Below, piece after piece: positions 10,591 through 24,493 of a DNA stretch of 24,518 nt. The translations under genes and the position numbers were made by a program. Origin of the DNA: a virus (taxonomy: Duplodnaviria; Heunggongvirae; Uroviricota; Caudoviricetes); IMG/VR virus record IMGVR_UViG_2778261643_000010. One strand, 5' to 3'. Position 1 is the first letter of the stretch, and each line of letters opens with the position of its first letter. Under the pieces are notes generated by a model. The model was not told where the DNA came from. It saw nothing but the letters and a program-made list of their open reading frames with translations, and did no database searches.

Positions 10591-13500
10591 CTATATTTTT
10601 CCGCCTACGCCTTTAAACTTCTCAATAAACGAGACGATTTTCTGGAAAACTGCCTGTTTTTTCGTTTTATATTGCGGATTCAACGGACTAAGTTTTGGTA
10701 ATGTTTCGTTTAATTCTGTGCCATTTTCGGTGGCGTATTCGCGTTTTAAAGACGTGCGAATATAGCGTTTTGCTGCTTCTTCATTGAGGTTTTCTTCTTT
10801 TATCAATGCTTCTGCTTCACGTTGCTGTTCGCGTTGAGCAAACGTAAAGAATGCCTCAATGATACTGGCTTTGTCTGGTAAATCATCCAGGTTCGTTTGC
10901 TGAATAAAATCGACCACCAGGCCCTCTTTCGCCCGGTTTCCCAGGCTTGAACGAATTAAGCGTTTGACCTCTTCGATCATTTCGCCCTTGCCTTTATTTT
11001 GTCTGTTGTGTTCGAAAATCAGTCCAAGGATATAATCCAGGTTTATTTCCTGAGACTTCAGCAAATCGACCTCAAAAACTACATCATCCCAGTCAGTGGT
11101 TGATTTCTCTTTTTTCTCAGCTTCTTTCTCACGGCGCTGCCAGTCGCGAATATCGTTATAGGCAGAACGATAATCCTGAATCTTGCGATCAGCAGGGAGA
11201 CGAATTGTTTGCAATTCAGCGAACTTTTCATCATCCACATAATGTTCTGCTTTGAATTTTTCTACCGCAACAGGATCGCTAAGATCGATTTGTTGCAGGG
11301 CTTTTAGCGTGGCAAATTCATCATAGTTTTGCAGGATGTTCTCGGCACGCAGGTATTCGCCAAACAGTTTAACGAAGTCTTTCTTCTCTTTTTCACTTTC
11401 AATACTGGTAGGGTCAGGGAACCGTTGTTCCAGTTCTGAAACTACTGTCATGAAGCCGCGTTTAGCTTCACCAGTGGCAGCATCAGTAAAGCCTTCCATA
11501 TACTCTGCATAACTCTTTTCTAAAACCACATTTTTGGTATTTTTGTCACCAAACAGCGTTATGGCATCAATGGTTGAGCGTTCCAGATCCCGGAACGTGA
11601 CGATATTACCGAAGGTTTTAGTCGCGTCATAAATGCGGTTGGTGCGGGAGAATGCCTGCATCAGGCCGTGAAAACGCAAGTTTTTATCGACGAATAGCGT
11701 GTTCAATGTTGGAGCGTCGAAGCCGGTTAAAAACATCCCAACGACAATTAACAGATCGATATCCTGATTTTTAACCCGTTGGGCTAAATCACGATAGTAG
11801 TTCTGAAAACCGTTACTGTCGGTACTGAAGTTAGTTTTAAAATAGCTGTTATATTCACGAATTGCAGCGTCGAGAAACTCTTTAGCACTGCTGTCCATTG
11901 CGCTGGTATCAAAAGTTTCATCGGAAATTTCACCAATGGCATTTTGTTCTTCATTAGCGGCAAAGGAGAAGATTGTCGCAACACGTAGTGGTTTATAGGT
12001 AGCAGATTTATAAGCGGCTTCCTCTTGTAACCGTTTAAACGTCGCGTAATAGGCTTTCGCGGCATCCACGCTGCTCACTGCCAGCATGGCATTAAAACCT
12101 TTGGAGCCAGGGAAAGTACGGTGGGTTTTCTGGCGGAAGTTATTCAGGATATATTGCGTAATTTCCTGAATACGCATGGGATGAAGGAACGCCTGCTGAT
12201 TTTCAGCCGCACTCAGTTTTTTCTCGTCAGTTTCTGTCTCTAAAGACTTAAACTGTGGCCGCACATCGTTGTAGTCCACCTTGAATTTAAGCACTTTTTC
12301 ATCACGAATCGCATCGGTAATAACATATGAATGCAATTCACGGCCAAATACGCTGGCGGTCGTTTCTGAGCCTAAGGCGTTTTCCGGGAAAATAGGTGTG
12401 CCGGTAAAACCAAACTGATAATAGCGTTTGAATTTCTTCTTCAGGTTTTTCTGTGCTTCTCCAAACTGGCTGCGGTGACATTCATCAAATATAAACACCA
12501 CTTGCTGATTGTATACAGGCAGGTCGCTTTCTGCTTTCATCAGGTTATTAAGTTTCTGAATAGTGGTGACGATAATTTTGTTATCGTCCTTATCCAGATT
12601 TCGTTTAAGACCTGCGGTATTTTCCGAGCCGTTGACGCTGTCTGGCGAAAAACGCTGATATTCCTTCATGGTCTGGTAATCGAGGTCTTTCCTGTCGACC
12701 ACAAAGAAAACTTTATCAATAAAGTCCAGTTCTGTTGCCAGACGCGCGGCTTTAAAGCTGGTCAGGGTTTTACCGGAACCCGTGGTGTGCCAGATATACC
12801 CACCGCTTTCCGGTTTTGACCAGTTCTTCGCTGTAAAGGAGCTCTTAATTTTCCACAGAATGCGCTCGGTGGCGGCAATCTGGTACGGTCGCATCACCAG
12901 TAGCGTCTGACTACTGTCAAAAACGCTGTAGTTCACCAGAACATTCAGCAGAGTATGTTTCTGGAAAAAGGTAGCGGTAAAATCTTTGAGGTCTTTAATC
13001 AGCGTGTTGTCTGATTTCGCCCAGTTCATGGTGAAGTCAAAACTATTTTTATCGCGCTTTGTGGTGTTGGCAAAGTAACGGGTATCGGTGCCGTTAGAAA
13101 TGACAAACAGTTGCAGATACTTAAACAGGGAATTTTCGCTGTTAAAACTCTCTTTACTGTAACGATGTATCTGGTTGAAAGCCTCACGAATCGCCACGCC
13201 GCGCTTTTTCAGTTCGATTTGCACCAGAGGCAAGCCATTAACCAGGATAGTTACGTCATAACGGTTAGCGTGAGAACCTGCCTGTTCAAACTGCTGGATA
13301 ATCTGCACTTTGTTGCGCATGAGATTCTTTTTATCTATCAGATAGATGTTCTCAAGACGCCCGTCGTCAAAAATAAAGTCGCAAATATAGTCGATATGGA
13401 TTTTACGGGTCTTATCCAGAATGCCATCGCTCGGGTTGTCCAGATACTGCTCCGTGAAACGCCGCCACTCGCTGTCATTAAACACCACACCATTGAGGCT

Positions 13501-13707
13501 CTGAAGCTGTTCCCGAACATTGGACAGCATAGCCGACTGAGATTTTACGGATATAAATTCATAGCCCTGATTCCGCAGGTCCTGAATCAGTTCACGTTCC
13601 AGGTCCGATTCGCTCTGGTAGCTGTCGCCTGTTGGCTCAGCTTTGATGTACTTATCAAGGACGATAAAGTTATTGGATTCAGCAATAGTGTGTGTCTGAT
13701 GAGTCAT
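10591..13707 (-). CDS. hsdR: Type I restriction enzyme R subunit (HsdR), EcoR124-family (Type IC)
   Basis: Walker A motif [11 protein letters not shown] and DEAD-like [10 protein letters not shown] are present. The ORF track begins at 13767, but ATG 13707 ([11 protein letters not shown]) has an AAGGA ribosome-binding site and gives about 1038 aa, the length I recall for EcoR124I HsdR. Confidence 0.9.
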
Positions 13708-13828: not shown

Positions 13829-15085
13829 TTAATTACTGACAGTTTCAGGTTTCGGGAAACTGAACAGTAAGTCACGATAGTACTCGTATTGTTTCTGGCG
13901 CAACTCGATTTCACGCGGGAGACCTTCGGTGATGGAGTTGGTCAGGGTGTCGAATTTATCGAGCAGAGCAGATATTCGCTCTTGTTTCTGTTTATCAGGC
14001 AATGGCACTGGTAATGTTTTTATAATATCTGCATTCAAGTTACTGACCGACCCGCTATTGATTTTACTTTCCCAATAATTTTTCACCTTTTTTGATGAAA
14101 GATAGTGATACAGATAATCAGCATTTAATTTTTCACCAAAATTGCTGATTGATGCCCATCCATCATGGATAGCTCCGGTTATCCTTAAAATATATGGTCT
14201 GCCAAAGCTCATAGAGTTAGAAATGACGAAATCACCGGGGTTCAAGATTCGCGATTTTTGGGCACCCTCTGCAGTTATTTTTTGTAAGGTTTTGTCAATG
14301 TATTTAGAGCCGGGGATAGTATCTCCGATTTTAATCCATGGGATACCATTTCCTTGTTCAGTAAGATAATTAACAATTGGCCTGGGGGATGCCCCACGTT
14401 GTATTTTGGCTACTTCTCCCAATGCCTTCCACTCAACCTCACCCTCTTTAAAACTCAGCAACTGGTCGCGATAGTAGTTGTACTGTTTTTTACGCATGTT
14501 AAGCTCAGCGGTAAGCTCAGCGGTAAGTGCAGTAAATTTGTCCAGAATCCGAACGATTTCAGACTGGATGGCGAGGGATTTTTCCGGATTATCCGGGCAG
14601 GGAATTGGGATGAGTAGTTTTGACATCAATGCATTTGAGCTTAGATTCGGTTGTGCTCCGCCCCCGGCGAGGATATAAATAGTCTCTGTATTTAACAATA
14701 AAAAATGGTATAAATAATTATTGTTTAGAATATTTTCTTTGGGTATGAATTTTCCAACCCGTTGGTTAAGATAACATTTTGTTCCTTTTTTATAAATTCC
14801 CACTTTTCCTGTAGTGGCACCTGACATTGCAATCAATATATTTCCCATAGATACCTCAAAGGAGGATAAATCTTCCTTGTAATCATTTAGTGAAAAGTAT
14901 TTCACCTCATCTAAGTCAACATTAAATCCATCTATATTTGTGATTCTAACTATCGGTAACCCAGTTTCTTTAAATAAGCTGCTTTTAAATGCAAATCCAT
15001 TTTTAAAATCACAAACATCCTTCAAGGGTTTCCACTCAACCTCAACCCCATCCAGCAATTTTTCCAGATAACTCAACTCGCTCAT
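13829..15085 (-). CDS. hsdS: Type I R-M specificity subunit (HsdS) with two target-recognition domains and a central TAEL-repeat region
   Basis: It has the conserved central block [54 protein letters not shown] and a conserved C-terminal block. The start overlaps the hsdM stop (ATGA). Confidence 0.9.
14501..14536. repeat. Two perfect 12-bp tandem repeats (AAGCTCAGCGGT) plus a degenerate third unit, encoding LTAEL-TAEL in hsdS
   Basis: Direct reading of 14501-14512 and 14513-14524, then the diverged unit AAGTGCAGTAAA. Confidence 0.85.
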
Positions 15086-16638
15086 TTCTGCACCTCGCAG
15101 CCTTCAATTTCAGCCACAATCGCATCAATATCTTTACGCAACTGGTCGATTTTGCTGACCGTGATTTTCAGCTCTGCATTCAACTCAGCGATATCGATAA
15201 TTTCGCGAGTATCTTTCGCTTCAACATAGCTGCTCACCGACAGGTTATAGTCATTAGCAACAACGGTCTCAAACGCGACTGATTTCGCCAGATGAGCAAC
15301 ATCTTCCTTGCTGGCAAATACCTGCATAATCTGTTCGATATGGGCATCGGTCAGGATATTGTTGTTGGTCTCTTTTTTGAATAGTTCGCTGGCGTCAATA
15401 AACTGAACTTTTGTATCTGTTTTATGTTTAGACAACACCAGAATGTTTACGGCAATGGTGGTGCCAAAGAACAGGTTCGGTGCCAGTGAAATCACGGTTT
15501 CGACATAGTTATTATCAACCAGATACTGACGGATTTTCTGCTCCGCGCCGCCACGGTAAAAAATACCCGGGAAGCAAACAATCGCAGCACGACCTTTGGC
15601 AGAAAGATAGTTCAGCGCATGTAGTACAAAGGCGAAGTCAGCTTTTGATTTGGGGGCCAGAACGCCAGCCGGGGCAAAACGTTCATCGTTAATCAGCGTC
15701 GGGTCATCGCTGCCAATCCATTTCACCGAATACGGCGGGTTAGAAACGATGGCATCAAACGGTTTTTCATCTCTGAAGTGTGGTTCAGTCAGCGTATTGC
15801 CCAGCTTGATATCAAACTTGTCGTAGTTGATGTTGTGCAAAAACATGTTCATACGCGCCAGGTTATAGGTCGTATGGTTGATTTCCTGACCAAAAAAACC
15901 TTCTTCGATGATATGGTCATCAAACTGTTTTTTAGCCTGCAACAACAGCGAACCGGAGCCTGCTGCCGGGTCGTAGATTTTGTTAACGTGGGTCTGCCCG
16001 TGCATAGCCAGTTGTGCAATCAGCTTAGAGACGTGCTGCGGTGTAAAGAACTCGCCGCCGGACTTACCGGCATTCGCGGCATAGTTAGAAATCAGGAACT
16101 CATAGGCGTCACCGAACAGATCAATCTGATGTTCGGTGAAGTCACCAAGTTTTAACCCTTCAACCCCTTTCAGAACCGCAGCCAGGCGGGCATTTTTATC
16201 TTTAACGGTGTTACCCAGGCGGTTACTGGTGGTATCGAAATCAGCAAACAAACCTTTGATGTCTGCTTCTGAAGGGTAGCCGTAAGCAGAACTTTCGATA
16301 GCAACGAAGATACTGTTTAAATCTGCATTCAGTCTGTCATTGGTATTTGCTTTCGCAGCTACGTTGCAGAAAAGCTGGCTTGGGTAGATGAAGTAGCCTT
16401 TGGTTTTGATGGCATCGTCTTTAATGTCATCAGTAATTACGCTGTCATCCAGTGCTGCATAACAGATGCTGTCATCATCGGCTTCCATATAGCTGGAAAA
16501 ATTTTCGCTGATAAAACGATAAAAAAGCGCGCCCAGAACGTACTGCTTAAAATCCCATCCATCGACTGAACCCCTGACATCGTTAGCAATTTGCCAGATC
16601 TGGCGATGAAGTTCTGCACGTTGTTGAATACTTGTCAT
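15082..16638 (-). CDS. hsdM: Type I R-M N6-adenine DNA methyltransferase (HsdM)
   Basis: Contains the AdoMet-binding motif [11 protein letters not shown] and the catalytic motif VSNPPYS. Confidence 0.9.
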
Positions 16639-16768
16639 TTTCTTCCACTTATTTCAGGCTTAAGTAATTGGCGGTGATTCTACAGCAACTTTGATGCTTT
16701 AGCAGTTCGGACATTAGGCAACGAATGACCTAATTAGAGCTTTTTGGAAAAGCGGTATTGTCGGTGCG

Positions 16769-16993
16769 ATGATAGCTATGTTTGGGTTCGCGATGGTGCA
16801 ATACAATGACGGTGAAAAGGTAAGCATCCAGTCTGATGGCTGGTATGGGCTGGATAGCCTGCAAAAAACCGCAGATAAAGCCTGTCAGCAATATGGAAAG
16901 TCTAAAGCCGTATATCAGCATAGCGCGAACGCTAATCCACATCTCGCGCCCGGCACGGGCGTTCAGAACACTATTTGGAAATGCGAACCATAA
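16769..16993 (+). CDS. Hypothetical small protein (74 aa)
   Basis: ORF only; no clear ribosome-binding site. It overlaps an antisense ORF (16730-16942), so the coding status is uncertain. Confidence 0.25.
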   Translation: MIAMFGFAMVQYNDGEKVSIQSDGWYGLDSLQKTADKACQQYGKSKAVYQHSANANPHLAPGTGVQNTIWKCEP

Positions 16994-17176
16994 CGCAGGT
17001 TGGCTTTTTACATCTTGGGCCGAATACTGATTCCGCGCTAAGTTGTTTGTGCGGAAGTGACACTGTGGAGCTTAGAAATAGTAAATACTGGTGGGCAACA
17101 AATTGAGCCTTCACACGCTCACCAGCACACACAAAAAATGGTTAAACAGCAAGGGAATTAATATCTCAGCGCGACA

Positions 17177-17314
17177 TTAAATAAGCCAGCGCACGCCTCT
17201 GTTTATCACTGACTTGAAAAACCATATCAGAACCACGATGAAGACAATCGCCAGCACTTGGCTAAGAACAGGCGCATTTAAAAATGCACTTAGAAACTGA
17301 AAAAATACAATCAT
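17177..17314 (-). CDS. Candidate small membrane protein (45 aa, MIVFFQFLSAFLNAPVLSQVLAIVFIVVLIWFFKSVINRGVRWLI)
   Basis: Has GAGGA eight nt upstream of the ATG and is strongly hydrophobic. It lies in an otherwise gene-poor spacer. Confidence 0.3.
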   Translation of the reverse strand: MIVFFQFLSAFLNAPVLSQVLAIVFIVVLIWFFKSVINRGVRWLI

Positions 17315-17782
17315 CAGGGTAATCCTCGTCAAATGTAAAGCTGTGTGCTCTCACGTTGACGTAGAAACCCAACCTCTATATAGTTGGATTCGGTGAAAGA
17401 AAGTCGTTAACGTGAACTTACGGCACATGTTTTCGGTATAAAAATCAGGGAACTGTGAATTCCTTGATGTAGTTGGGGCCTGTAATGCAGGCCCTATCTA
17501 TTAATGTCATGATTACATCTCAAATTTTCTCCTTATCATTATTATTTAATAAAATTCAATTAATAAAATATCCATTTCCTGTGTGTGCAAACACAGTATG
17601 AGGAAAATGGCCTCGTTGCAAGTGCATAACTTTGTGGATAACTCTGAAGGCGAATTTACATTTCGGCGCACCGCAAGCCAGATAAGCTGTGCGCAAAAAG
17701 CAATGGGGTGAGAAAAAAACTTTGAAGATATTGCGGCGACTAAATAATAGCCGTTATTCAATTATTCTGGATGGGATTTAAT

Positions 17783-19839: not shown

Positions 19840-20219
19840 TGAGGCATATATCACCGGAAGAACTTATTGCGCTTCATGATGCGAATATAAACCGCTACGG
19901 CGGCTTGCCGGGAATGTCAGATCCGGGTAGGGCAGAGGCCATTATCGGGAGAGTTCAGGCCAGAGTTGCCTACGAAGAGATCACCGACCTTTTCGAAGTC
20001 TCCGCCACCTACCTGGTGGCTACAGCGAGAGGGCATATATTCAATGATGCCAATAAGCGTACCGCGCTAAACAGTGCGCTGTTATTTCTACGCCGTAACG
20101 GGGTGCAGGTATTTGATTCACCTGAACTGGCAGACCTTACCGTAGGGGCTGCGACCGGAGAGATATCTGTATCTTCTGTCGCCGACACGTTACGTAGATT
20201 GTATGGTTCCGCGGAGTAG
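19839..20219 (+). CDS. doc: Doc toxin (Fic-fold kinase), 126 aa
   Basis: Contains the Fic-type motif [11 protein letters not shown]. Same size and position as P1 Doc. Confidence 0.9.
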
Positions 20220-20223
20220 ATTA

Positions 20224-20403
20224 ATGGCACGTAAATACAACAAATTGTCCCGTGAAGCGTTAAAGATGCTTCTTGATGGCGTGAGTCGCCGCGAGGTAAA
20301 GCAATACCTGGTTGGTAAGCAAATTGGTGCCAGGACCGCTATTGCTGTGTTATGCCGTCAGGAAATGGTTGTGCTTAAACAGAGAATGCCGGGCAGCAGA
20401 TAA
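20224..20403 (+). CDS. Small basic hypothetical protein (60 aa), in the position of the P1 post-doc gene
   Basis: ORF with GCGGAG upstream of the ATG. Confidence 0.4.
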   Translation: MARKYNKLSREALKMLLDGVSRREVKQYLVGKQIGARTAIAVLCRQEMVVLKQRMPGSR

Positions 20404-20430
20404 AGCCCAATCAGTGATTAAAGGTGTGAT

Positions 20431-21474
20431 GTGAAAGCCGTAATTACTCCATTTGTACAGAAAGAGCTTGGCCTCGCCACGTTCAAAGTGGACCAGGAGG
20501 TCAGAAAGCTGGTGGAGGCTGGCCGTAAATTTATTATGGAGCCGGTGCCGCGTGAGTTAATCGAGCACATGGACGACGGCCTCGTTGTTTCCGAGCAAAC
20601 TATGGCAACAAATGAGGCGTTGCAGCCGTTTTTTAACAGCGATGAACTGTTTCGCCGTATTGGTGGAATTGACTCGCTGGTGGCGTGGTTGCGCAGGAAA
20701 GAGGGGCAATGCCAGGCCGCAGATCGTAGTTGGTGTGACAACCATATTGTCCACGCTGAACGAGACAATAGCGCGGTGTTGTTGTGCTGGCATCACGATA
20801 ACCATTACCGGATGCGTGGTTTTAATGAGCTGAAAGAAACGCTGCATAATAATCGCGTTAACTGGATACTGGATGTCGCCCGTCAGGAAATGGGGCTTTC
20901 AGATGGCCATGATTTAAGTATTCAGGAACTGTGCTGGTGGGCTTTCATGCGCAACATGATGCACCTGATGCCGGAAGAAGTCTGCCGCATATCAATAAAT
21001 AAGATGAAGGCTACTCCGCAGGATAGCGGACCTCTGAAAGAGGCGGATATTCGCCCGTATGACGATCGCGCTATAGCATATGTTCAGATGATGGAAGAAC
21101 GCGCCGCGCCGATGCGTGCAAAAGTATGTCCTGTGGATGTTGACTCCGACCCAGGTATGGCGCATTTCAAAATACCAAAACTTCAATCGCTAAAATTACC
21201 TGAGTACATGGACTTTGTTGCTTCCCGTCCATGCTGTGGCTGTGGAGCTGCGGGAGCTGGCGCTCACATTACGCCTTATATCGTTCGTCATAGTCGATTA
21301 TGCGCGCATGACATTTATGCTATTCCTCTGTGCCAGTCATGCCAGCGTGATATTGAGCGTGACCGCGATAATTGGGAGAAAACACACGGTAGGCTGGCGA
21401 TGCATCAACGATTGTTCTTTGATTACGCGCTTGGAGTCGGCGCTATCACAAGTCACTCGTCGAGCGTTAGATAA
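20431..21474 (+). CDS. Cysteine-rich hypothetical protein (347 aa), in the position of the P1 post-doc genes
   Basis: GTG start with AAGGTG ribosome-binding site. Contains [12 protein letters not shown] and CQSCQ motifs. Confidence 0.5.
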
Positions 21475-21475
21475 A

Positions 21476-21492
21476 ATTGCTCTAATGTATTG
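21476..21492 (+). promoter_or_regulatory. C1 operator-like 17-mer ATTGCTCTAATGTATTG overlapping a candidate promoter (TTGCTA -35, TATTAT -10)
   Basis: Matches the consensus at 14 of 17 positions and sits upstream of the putative lpa. Confidence 0.45.
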
Positions 21493-21562
21493 CTATTTAT
21501 TTAATCGAGGGTATTATATTCCACGTTGATTAGTTGACATGGGCTAATCAGTAGGTGACAGG

Positions 21563-22015
21563 ATGTTACTTAACTGGCAGGGACGCCACTTCATGGAAAT
21601 AAATCACTCACGAATAACATCGTACGAGATTGCGGATTACATGATCCGCACTAAATCTCTTCTATCAGCGAAAGAACTCGCAGCAATTCTTGAAAAGGAA
21701 TACCCGCATCTGGATGTCGATAAGCGCGATGTTTATCTGCGCTTAAAGGCTATCGCTGTGTCTAAGTATTCGTCTGTTTTGATTGATGACAGTACACGCC
21801 CACGTAGATTTCAGATCCACTCTCTGAATCCTGAATTCTTTCGCCGTAGCCGCGCTCCGCGCCGGTTTGATGAAAAACTCCAGAACGAACTCTATATGAC
21901 GCAGGACGAAAAGGAACGCCGGGAGCACCAGCCTTGGGTAATGGCGCGTCAACTTTTCAATAAGGTGGCCCGTCAGCACCGTCATTACGGTAATGCCACA
22001 TCCGCACGTATCTGA
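21563..22015 (+). CDS. lpa: Putative late promoter activator (assigned by synteny only); start may be ATG at 21593
   Basis: A 150-aa ORF between the doc-distal genes and pacA, which is where P1 carries lpa as I recall. No motif-level support. Confidence 0.45.
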   Translation: MLLNWQGRHFMEINHSRITSYEIADYMIRTKSLLSAKELAAILEKEYPHLDVDKRDVYLRLKAIAVSKYSSVLIDDSTRPRRFQIHSLNPEFFRRSRAPRRFDEKLQNELYMTQDEKERREHQPWVMARQLFNKVARQHRHYGNATSARI

Positions 22016-22100
22016 TTGATTGCTTGCCCGTTCCGGGCCTTTTGACATGTGACTTTCGTTACCCTCGCGTCAAAAAGAGTTTTTACGAAAGGAAGCATAA

Positions 22101-23294
22101 GTGACCTGGGACGATCACAAAAAGAATTTTGCTCGCCTGGCGCGAGATGGTGGTTACACCATCGCACAGTATGCCGCCGAGTTTAATCTTAACCCTAATA
22201 CCGCACGTCGTTATCTCCGTGCCTTCAAAGAAGACACCAGGACTGCGGACAGCCGCAAGCCAAATAAGCCAGTCAGGAAGCCACTAAAAAGCATGATCAT
22301 TGATCACTCTAATGATCAACATGCAGGTGATCATATTGCGGCTGAAATAGCGGAAAAACAGAGAGTTAATGCCGTTGTCAGTGCCGCAGTCGAGAATGCG
22401 AAGCGCCAAAATAAGCGCATAAATGATCGTTCAGATGATCATGACGTGATCACCCGCGCCCGCCGGACCTTACGTGATCGCCTGGAACGCGACACCCTGG
22501 ATGATGATGGTGAACGCTTTGAATTCGAAGCTGGCGATTACCTGATAGATAACGTTGAAGCGCGGAAGGCCGCGCGCGCTATGTTGCGTCGGTCCGGGGC
22601 TGATGTTCTGGAAACCACTCTTCTGGAAAAGTCTCTCTCTCATCTCCTTATGCTGGAGAACGCCAGGGATACGTGTATTCGCCTGGTGCAGGAAATTCGC
22701 GATCAGCAAAAAGACGATGATGAAGGAACTCCGCCTGAATACCGTATCGCGAGCATGCTAAACAGCTGTTCCGCGCAGATAAGCAGTCTGATCAACACCA
22801 TTTACAGCATCCGGAATAACTATCGAAAAGAAAGCCGGGAGGCGGAAAAGCACGCTTTATCTATGGGGCAAGCTGGCATTGTTAAGCTGGCATACGAACG
22901 AAAGCGTGAAAATAACTGGTCAGTGCTGGAAGCAGCTGAATTCATCGAGGCGCATGGCGGGAAAGTGCCGCCCCTGATGCTGGAGCAAATCAAAGCCGAT
23001 CTGCGTGCTCCTAAGACCAATACCGATGATGAGGAAAGGCAAACAGCCGTCGGTGGCCCTTCTCTTGAAGATCTGGACAAAGTTGCGCGAGAACGGGCCG
23101 CCAACCGCCGCGCCGATGCCGCATTGTGGATTGAGCAGCGTAGGGAAGAAATCGCCGATATCGTTGATACAGGCGGTTATGGAGATGTTGATACTGAAGG
23201 TGTATCAAACGACCCATGGCTGGAACAAGACCTGGACGAAGACGAGGAGGAAGACGAAGAAGTTACCCGCAAGCTATACGGGGATGATGATTAA
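22101..23294 (+). CDS. pacA: Terminase small subunit / pac-recognition protein PacA
   Basis: GTG start with AGGAAG ribosome-binding site. The N-terminus [38 protein letters not shown] matches what I recall of P1 PacA. The pac hexamer cluster lies inside the gene. Confidence 0.85.
22294..22452 (+). promoter_or_regulatory. pac packaging site: four TGATCA hexamers (22294, 22301, 22313, 22328) and three TGATCA/G (22424, 22436, 22447) flanking the presumed cleavage region
   Basis: Direct reading gives seven Dam GATC sites in a 4+3 arrangement, the architecture described for P1 pac. Confidence 0.8.
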
Positions 23295-24493
23295 TGGCCA
23301 GAAGTTGCGTAACGGATCCACGTTGGCGCGAGCTGGTGGCGCTATATCGTTATGACTGGATTGCTGCCGCTGATGTTTTGTTCGGCAAAACACCTACCTG
23401 GCAGCAGGATCTGATTATTGAGTCTGTGCAGGAACAGGGTAGCAAGACATCTGTTTCGTCTGGTCACGGTACCGGGAAATCAGACATGACTTCTATCATG
23501 ATCATGTTGTTCATAATCATGTATCCCGGTGCCCGCGCCATTATCGTTGCGAACAAAATTCAGCAGGTAATGACCGGTATATTCAAGTACATCAAGATAA
23601 ACTGGGCTACTGCCACCAGCCGTTTTCCATGGCTTGCTGATTATTTTGTTCTGACAGAAACCGCTTTCTATGAGGTTACTGGTAAAGGTGTATGGACTGT
23701 AGTACCGAAGGGCTTTCGTCTGGGAAGTGAAGAAGCTCTCGCCGGTGAACACGCAGATCATCTTCTGTATATTATCGATGAAGCCTCCGGTGTCAGTGAT
23801 AGAGCTTTCGGTATCATCACCGGTGCTCTTACCGGACAGGATAACCGCATCTTATTACTGTCACAGCCTACACGCCCAAGCGGCTATTTCTACGATACTC
23901 ACCATAAACTGGCCAAGCGTCCTGGTAACCCAGATGGCGTTTATACGGCGATCACGCTTAACAGTGAGGAATCACCGCTGGTAACGCCAGAATTTATCAA
24001 AATGAAGCTGGCGGAGTACGGCGGGCGTGATAACCCTATGTACATGATTAAGGTGCGTGGCCTATTCCCTAAATCACAGGACGGCTTCCTTCTTGGACGT
24101 GATGAGGTTGAACGTGCAACGCGGCGGAAAGTTAAGATTGCCAAAGGATGGGGCTGGCTTGCATGTGTGGACGTTGCTGGTGGTACGGGACGGGATAAGT
24201 CAGTTATCAATATCATGATGGTGTCCGGCCAGCGAAATAAACGCCGTGTAATCAACTATCGAATGCTGGAATACACAGACGTTACAGAAACGCAGCTTGC
24301 CGCCAAAATTTTCGCAGAATGTAATCCTGAGCGATTCCCAAATATCACCATAGCGATAGACGGCGATGGCCTGGGTAAAGCAACGGCGGATCTGATGTAC
24401 GAGTATTATGGTATTACCGTACAGCGTATACGCTGGGGTAAAAAGATGCATAGCCCTGATGAATCCCCTAATGATTTTTATCAAAATCATTAA
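23294..24493 (+). pseudogene. pacB: Terminase large subunit PacB, truncated by IS10; native sequence ends at 24455 and the last 12 codons plus stop are IS-derived
   Basis: Walker A GHGTGKS and Walker [10 protein letters not shown] are present. The coding sequence runs into CTGATGAATCCCC at 24456. TAATG overlap with pacA. Confidence 0.8.

Follow-up and report, generated by a model that had tools for sequence, protein, structure and literature searches.

The 12-bp repeat in the hsdS gene studied here is very probably a module that sets the spacer length of a Type IC specificity subunit of the EcoR124 family, gaining or losing units occasionally and at low frequency. The window, by which we mean the whole 24,518-nucleotide stretch of DNA that was analysed, holds two perfect copies of the unit, each encoding the tetrapeptide TAEL, and a natural three-unit form of the same allele exists on another viral contig. 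The underlying mechanism is textbook knowledge, and the finding amounts to the correct recognition of a classic case rather than to something newly discovered.

The repeat lies in a three-gene operon encoded entirely on the minus strand, in the order hsdM-hsdS-hsdR (16638 to 15082, 15085 to 13829 and 13707 to 10591), with hsdM and hsdS coupled by an ATGA overlap and a gap of 121 nt before hsdR. In EcoR124 a separate hsdR promoter is found at the position of this gap. The features on which the argument depends are as follows, in the direction of transcription.

15082-16638, minus strand: hsdM, 518 aa, with a full-length alignment to the M subunit of EcoR124 (1142 bits)

13829-15085, minus strand: hsdS, 418 aa, intact, its start overlapping the hsdM stop by 4 nt

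14606-15028, minus strand: N-terminal target recognition domain of HsdS (approximately aa 20-160), unlike the GAA-recognising domain of EcoR124I

14459-14587, minus strand: central conserved helix D1 of HsdS (aa 167-209), a continuous predicted helix of 43 residues that contains the repeat

14525-14533, minus strand: TAL remnant, ACT GCA CTT (T185-A186-L187), 9 nt without a Glu codon

14501-14524, minus strand: two perfect 12-bp units, ACCGCTGAGCTT twice on the coding strand, encoding TAEL-TAEL (HsdS aa 188-195)

14000-14434, minus strand: C-terminal target recognition domain of HsdS (approximately aa 218-362), unlike that of EcoR124I

13865-13993, minus strand: C-terminal conserved helix D2 of HsdS (aa 365-407), which according to alignment and predicted structure forms a coiled coil with D1

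10591-13707, minus strand: hsdR, 1038 aa from the ATG at 13707, intact

Upstream of the operon, the approximately 1.13 kb between hsdM and a DNA polymerase III theta homologue (16639-17770) contains no open reading frame of more than 74 aa, no Rfam match and no tRNA.

All three products point to the EcoR124 family. HsdM, with N6_Mtase and HsdM_N domains, matches 7bst_D, and HsdR aligns over residues 1-1038 with EcoR124I HsdR (2w00_A, 2288 bits) and contains the EcoR124_C domain (PF12008). As this alignment runs from the ATG at 13707, we place the start of hsdR there and not at GTG 13767, where the mechanical list of open reading frames begins the gene (1058 aa). HsdS comprises two Methylase_S domains and can be aligned along its whole length with the S subunit of EcoR124 (residues 1-418 against 1-404 of 7bst_A, PDB 7bst; E 4.6e-85). 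Its residues 159-220, a run of 62 that includes both TAEL units, are exactly those of EcoR124 HsdS, as are the last ~45 residues, whereas both recognition domains are divergent. Moreover, the primers with which one TAEL unit was deleted from EcoR124II in published work, accgctgagcttaacatgcg and ctgcacttaccgctgagctt, match the coding strand of the window exactly in both repeat and flanks, so that the repeat is the same as the prototype at the nucleotide level. The alignment to 7bst, the identical residues and the primer identity together bear out the earlier suggestion that the repeat belongs to an EcoR124-family spacer, and the domain architecture of HsdS, the homology of HsdR and HsdM, and the order and coupling of the genes are those of Type IC systems. 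Type I families were originally defined operationally, by genetic complementation or antibody cross-reaction. Given the near-identity of HsdM and HsdR, the subunits encoded here would likely complement, or cross-react with, those of EcoR124. Judged by its sequence, the hsdS gene combines recognition domains in a way that is new for the EcoR124 scaffold, which makes its specificity new as well, because its target recognition domains differ from those of EcoR124.

The repeat itself is unambiguous. On the plus strand AAGCTCAGCGGT occupies 14501-14512 and is repeated at 14513-14524, and Tandem Repeats Finder reports a perfect tract at 14500-14527 (period 12, 2.3 copies, 100% matches) as the top-scoring repeat of the window. 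No other perfect tandem repeat of period greater than 5 occurs in the 24.5 kb, the remaining perfect tracts in our scan (at least 2.3 copies) being period-4 and period-5 micro-repeats only. From base composition, period-12 tracts of such length are expected by chance about 6e-6 times, and 300 first-order Markov resamples yielded no comparable period-12 tract. The coding (minus) strand of the tract reads ACC GCT GAG CTT twice, giving T188-A-E-L-T-A-E-L195. Tandem Repeats Finder, translation and resampling thus confirm the 12-bp tandem repeat with two perfect TAEL copies described in the earlier note. The degenerate third copy that the note also proposed survives in part: 14525-14536 (AAGTGCAGTAAA) agrees in register with the unit at 6 of its 12 positions, but encodes F184-T185-A186-L187 (TTT ACT GCA CTT), in which the TAL lacks a Glu codon. 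We therefore rejected it as a third 12-bp unit, and treat it as a 9-nt TAL remnant plus a Phe codon. EcoR124 HsdS has an identical TAL that is left out of its repeat count, and the corresponding residues of relatives are TAL, TEL or SAL. Elsewhere in the window, Tandem Repeats Finder detects weak, imperfect repeats of period 12 or 6 at 23227-23260, 22401-24, 11109-31 and 13371-93 (80-90% matches, ~2 copies), while Rfam and tRNA scans of the window returned no matches.

The position of the units within HsdS is consistent with a role in spacing. In an AlphaFold model built from a 32-sequence alignment (mean pLDDT 84) they lie mid-way along the continuous helix of aa 167-209, and aa 365-407 form another long helix. 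The distance from LDKF to RQKQY in D2 is 17 aa, and the equivalent stretch of the two-unit D1 is 13 aa. D2 therefore has the length of a three-unit D1, from which the D1 of the window falls 4 aa short, and this supports the proposed geometry.

The functional consequence of unit number is known from the prototype. According to a 2014 review, EcoR124I, with two units, reads GAA N6 RTCG and EcoR124II, with three, reads GAA N7 RTCG; unequal crossing-over at the 12-bp repeat, which lies in the first connecting helix, is given as the cause of the change, and with each extra unit the recognition domains are displaced by about one base-pair step. Hybrids between EcoR124I and EcoDXXI follow the same rule, with unit number setting the gap independently of the recognition domains (2014 review). 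The statement about EcoR124 on which the earlier note had relied, that two or three units give N6 or N7 and that unequal crossing-over makes the change, agrees with this literature. Furthermore, deletion of one unit from EcoR124II altered the set of phages that were restricted. We found no published figure in the literature for the switching frequency of R124.

By analogy, we propose the following model for the system in the window. The two TAEL units in the middle of the central helix, which would pair with the C-terminal helix, may fix the distance and twist between the recognition domains, such that the two-unit enzyme would read its half-sites across the shorter gap, N6 if its domains act as in EcoR124I. 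With an additional 12-bp unit the helix would be approximately one turn longer and the enzyme would prefer a gap of one more base pair, N7. As the units are perfect direct repeats of DNA, unequal crossing-over or replication slippage could occasionally add or remove one in frame, which would create a new specificity of both restriction and modification with unchanged half-sites. Such a change, at low frequency, would make the repeat an evolutionary switch in a system that travels on a P1-like phage-plasmid of E. coli. Both the change in gap between the two- and three-unit forms of this allele, drawn from EcoR124, and the molecular route of unit change are inferred, and the rate of slippage with just two full units is expected to be low.

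The likeness to EcoR124I and EcoR124II of plasmid R124 is extensive, covering the three-gene system, the central conserved region, the 12-bp unit with its flanks, and the natural pair of two- and three-unit forms. What defines that switch, a TAEL unit at the homologous position in the central helix and alleles that differ in unit number only, is also found here. In contrast to the prototype, both recognition domains of the window differ, and its half-sites are consequently predicted to be other than GAA and RTCG; the R124 systems are carried by a conjugative R plasmid, whereas this one is on a P1-like phage-plasmid and its gap change is proposed by analogy. EcoDXXI and EcoprrI, which are Type IC enzymes with three TAEL units and N7 gaps, share the scaffold and the repeat with the window and have other recognition domains. 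Unlike them, the window has no prrC between hsdS and hsdR.

The two-unit form of this allele is by far the more common. Its protein (P0001 and P0002) is found on ~112 contigs (91 and 21), and an exact look-up of one-, three- and four-unit versions of the HsdS in a collection of 15 billion proteins found none. With the two- and the three-unit gene as queries, 5,426 complete E. coli genomes and PLSDB yielded no three-unit form, all full-length matches among those listed having two units, and a search of the GenBank phage collection for hsdS gave partial matches only. L091/L170, a copy of the allele that has diverged to 96% DNA identity, likewise carries two units. A three-unit counterpart was nevertheless recovered in the IMG/VR scan. 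This 51-kb contig (L092/L171; IMGVR_UViG_648276648_000009) encodes the recognition domains of the window in an HsdS of 422 aa with three ACCGCTGAGCTT units. It is 99.2% identical to the window over 20.6 kb, and within the 6-kb hsdRMS operon differs from it by one substitution (at 13612) and the 12-bp insertion. On the basis of these sequences, the contig is the natural counterpart, for this allele, of the EcoR124I/EcoR124II pair. Outside the operon, mismatches between the two fall in two blocks, at 3831-7000 (~59 substitutions) and 20000-24462 (~84), either side of an almost identical 7-20 kb, which indicates a backbone mosaic around a shared hsd block.

The three-unit form accounts for one contig of the ~115 that carry this allele (~1%), a proportion that argues for a low-frequency event and against rapid phase variation. 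The specificity switch that the earlier note had considered likely is therefore upheld in so far as variants differing by a single unit exist in nature, both in the three-unit contig and in four further pairs described below, as the note's own check for copy-number variants among relatives had anticipated; since the variant is rare, the switch is to be understood as an infrequent event, and the accompanying change in gap is an analogy with the prototype. The same rarity could be read differently. If the repeat were a fixed feature of the helix, practically unchanging in this lineage, the three-unit contig would be an assembly artefact or a dead-end mutant, and the uniformity of the ~112 contigs, the diverged two-unit copy and the failure to find variants in the protein collection, the complete genomes or PLSDB would follow naturally. 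However, a 36-bp tract is far below read length, making mis-assembly unlikely, and the wider family, to which we now turn, contains independent twin pairs in other recognition-domain combinations and phyla. We consider a fixed repeat improbable.

Among the top 120 protein relatives, ranked by similarity to the two-unit query, the spacer between LDKF and RKKQY could be assigned in 116, of which 103 have 13 aa (two units), nine have 9 aa (one unit) and four have 17 aa (three units). When grouped by matching recognition domains, 4 of 30 clusters with at least two members each are polymorphic for spacer length. The closest natural pairs differ by little else. In chromosomal E. coli, P0059 (two units) and P0068 (one unit) are separated at the DNA level by two substitutions and 12 bp; P0005 and P0007, from a cyanobacterial MAG and a metagenome, have two and three units and are separated by one substitution and 12 bp. 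Two IMG/VR viral contigs of 100.7 and 106 kb (L147 and L156), a phage-plasmid-sized pair with recognition domains other than those of the window, likewise have two and three units, with one substitution and 12 bp between them in 4.3 kb of DNA. For P0096 (two units) and P0113 (three), compared as proteins only, the middle unit is mutated to TAGL.

Variant forms can also be abundant, which again sits poorly with an unchanging repeat or with dead-end mutants. The single-unit P0068 (FTEL-TAEL-TM, 422 aa; L004-L007), a chromosomal E. coli allele, is present on 47 contigs. Among the best 80 loci per scan, for which the proportions of unit numbers are indicative only, matches from one genome per species across many phyla include 35 genes with two TAEL units, 22 with three and one with five, and viral contigs include 36 with two units and 25 with three. 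The five-unit gene, from a Thiothrix MAG (L013), has the longest tract in the sample, TAL-TAELx5-SM. Natural alleles with one, two, three and five units therefore exist.

The DNA of the units provides a further line of evidence. Among the loci listed, adjacent units within a gene are identical in DNA in 66 of 83 cases, most of the exceptions differing just at the final base of the last unit, whereas units from genes of different species are identical in only 211 of 1653 pairs (12.8%). This contrast between homogeneity within genes and divergence between lineages implies that units have been gained and lost recurrently across the family, and is difficult to reconcile with a repeat that is fixed. 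Taken with the commonness of two- and three-unit forms across phyla and the existence of one- and five-unit forms, it suggests, from sequence comparison, that unit turnover is a general and ongoing feature of the family rather than a peculiarity of R124.

How units are exchanged is a separate question. Unit number might be altered mainly by gene conversion with a co-resident Type IC hsdS, instead of by intragenic slippage or unequal exchange. E. coli genomes contain up to six places that match this hsdS, and the conserved regions are near-identical between alleles. In many E. coli hsdS alleles the C-terminal recognition domain of the window, at 96-98% DNA identity, is joined to other N-terminal domains, and the 3' 62% of the gene (13829-14610) recurs at the same level of identity in many E. 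coli plasmids with a different N-terminal domain; these half-gene matches indicate that recognition domains are shuffled by recombination through the conserved regions. Furthermore, since ACCGCTGAGCTT is the unit common to most E. coli phage-plasmid alleles, conversion between them would leave no other trace. Against this as the main route, the twins differ by exactly 12 bp and 0-2 substitutions with their flanking markers unchanged, and units are homogeneous within genes in species of many phyla, with codons specific to each lineage, for which intragenic events are the simplest explanation. Conversion is a plausible contributor, compatible with the intragenic routes and leading to the same outcome, and we judge it unlikely to be the predominant one.

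The preferred reading, a spacer module whose unit number changes infrequently, also needs to be distinguished from faster repeat-based switches in other hsdS genes. NgoAV of N. gonorrhoeae, a Type IC enzyme with LEAT/EATL repeats, resembles the system in the window in that strains vary in the number of 4-aa repeats in the helix, with N6 or N7 gaps. Natural repeat number and a downstream frameshift have been reported to track its N6 and N7 methylation motifs together. Unlike the window hsdS, which is full length and without a homopolymer switch, NgoAV varies in addition through a poly-G frameshift that truncates HsdS. Genes of hsdS that contain simple sequence repeats, and invertible hsdS shufflons, likewise change Type I specificity without new genes, but do so at high frequency, through long tracts or through site-specific inversion that swaps domains, whereas the repeat in the window would alter spacing only, and rarely. 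Were the tract a contingency locus of this kind, the system would be a phase-variable methyltransferase controlling a phasevarion, like the simple-sequence-repeat hsdS genes of host-adapted pathogens, and a survey of repeat-containing hsdS genes does raise tract-length change beside the TAEL region as a modifier of spacing. However, the 12-mer is present in 2.3 copies only, the variant makes up ~1% of the contigs of this allele, and carriage on a phage-plasmid together with an intact hsdR fits defence rather than gene regulation. The long hypermutable tract and high-frequency reversible switching that mark a phasevarion are not seen here, and such a role is extremely improbable.

The carrier is identifiable from its neighbours. 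Genes for phd/doc, a C1 repressor, a late promoter-activating protein, a terminase and the DNA polymerase III theta homologue mark the element as a P1-like phage-plasmid of E. coli, and the window matches the 99.9-kb E. coli plasmid NZ_CP122822 at 100% identity, save for a copy of IS1203 there, and NZ_MN510446 at 100% identity over 94% of the window length. In NZ_CP122822, the ETEC1731 plasmid, the insertion splits hsdR (L001 9792-11005), the gene that is intact in the window, and that copy of the system should, from its sequence, modify DNA and not restrict it. P1-like phage-plasmids have been reported to carry restriction-modification systems, among them Type III systems and PrrC, which that study classed with Type I.

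Our analysis adds to the classic mechanism a three-unit twin of this allele, natural one- and five-unit forms, and a pattern of concerted evolution across phyla. It also provides a predicted gap class for a Type IC specificity that is new and uncharacterised; the P1-like phage-plasmid that carries it is widespread in E. coli from livestock. Looking forward, the two- and three-unit pair, which differs by one substitution and 12 bp in 6 kb, offers a ready isogenic test of helix length against DNA spacing. More tentatively, and with considerable doubt on our part, the TAEL tract may be more than a spacer: a conserved evolvability device, with unit number serving as a cheap dial for incompatibility or superinfection exclusion between phage-plasmids. 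This reading draws on the DNA identity of units within each gene and their lineage-specific codons across many phyla, which imply continual gain and loss, on the natural range of one, two, three and five units, and on the coexistence in nature of such twins among P1-like phage-plasmids. If it is true, twins that share half-sites and presumably differ in their gaps could let otherwise near-identical phage-plasmids restrict each other.
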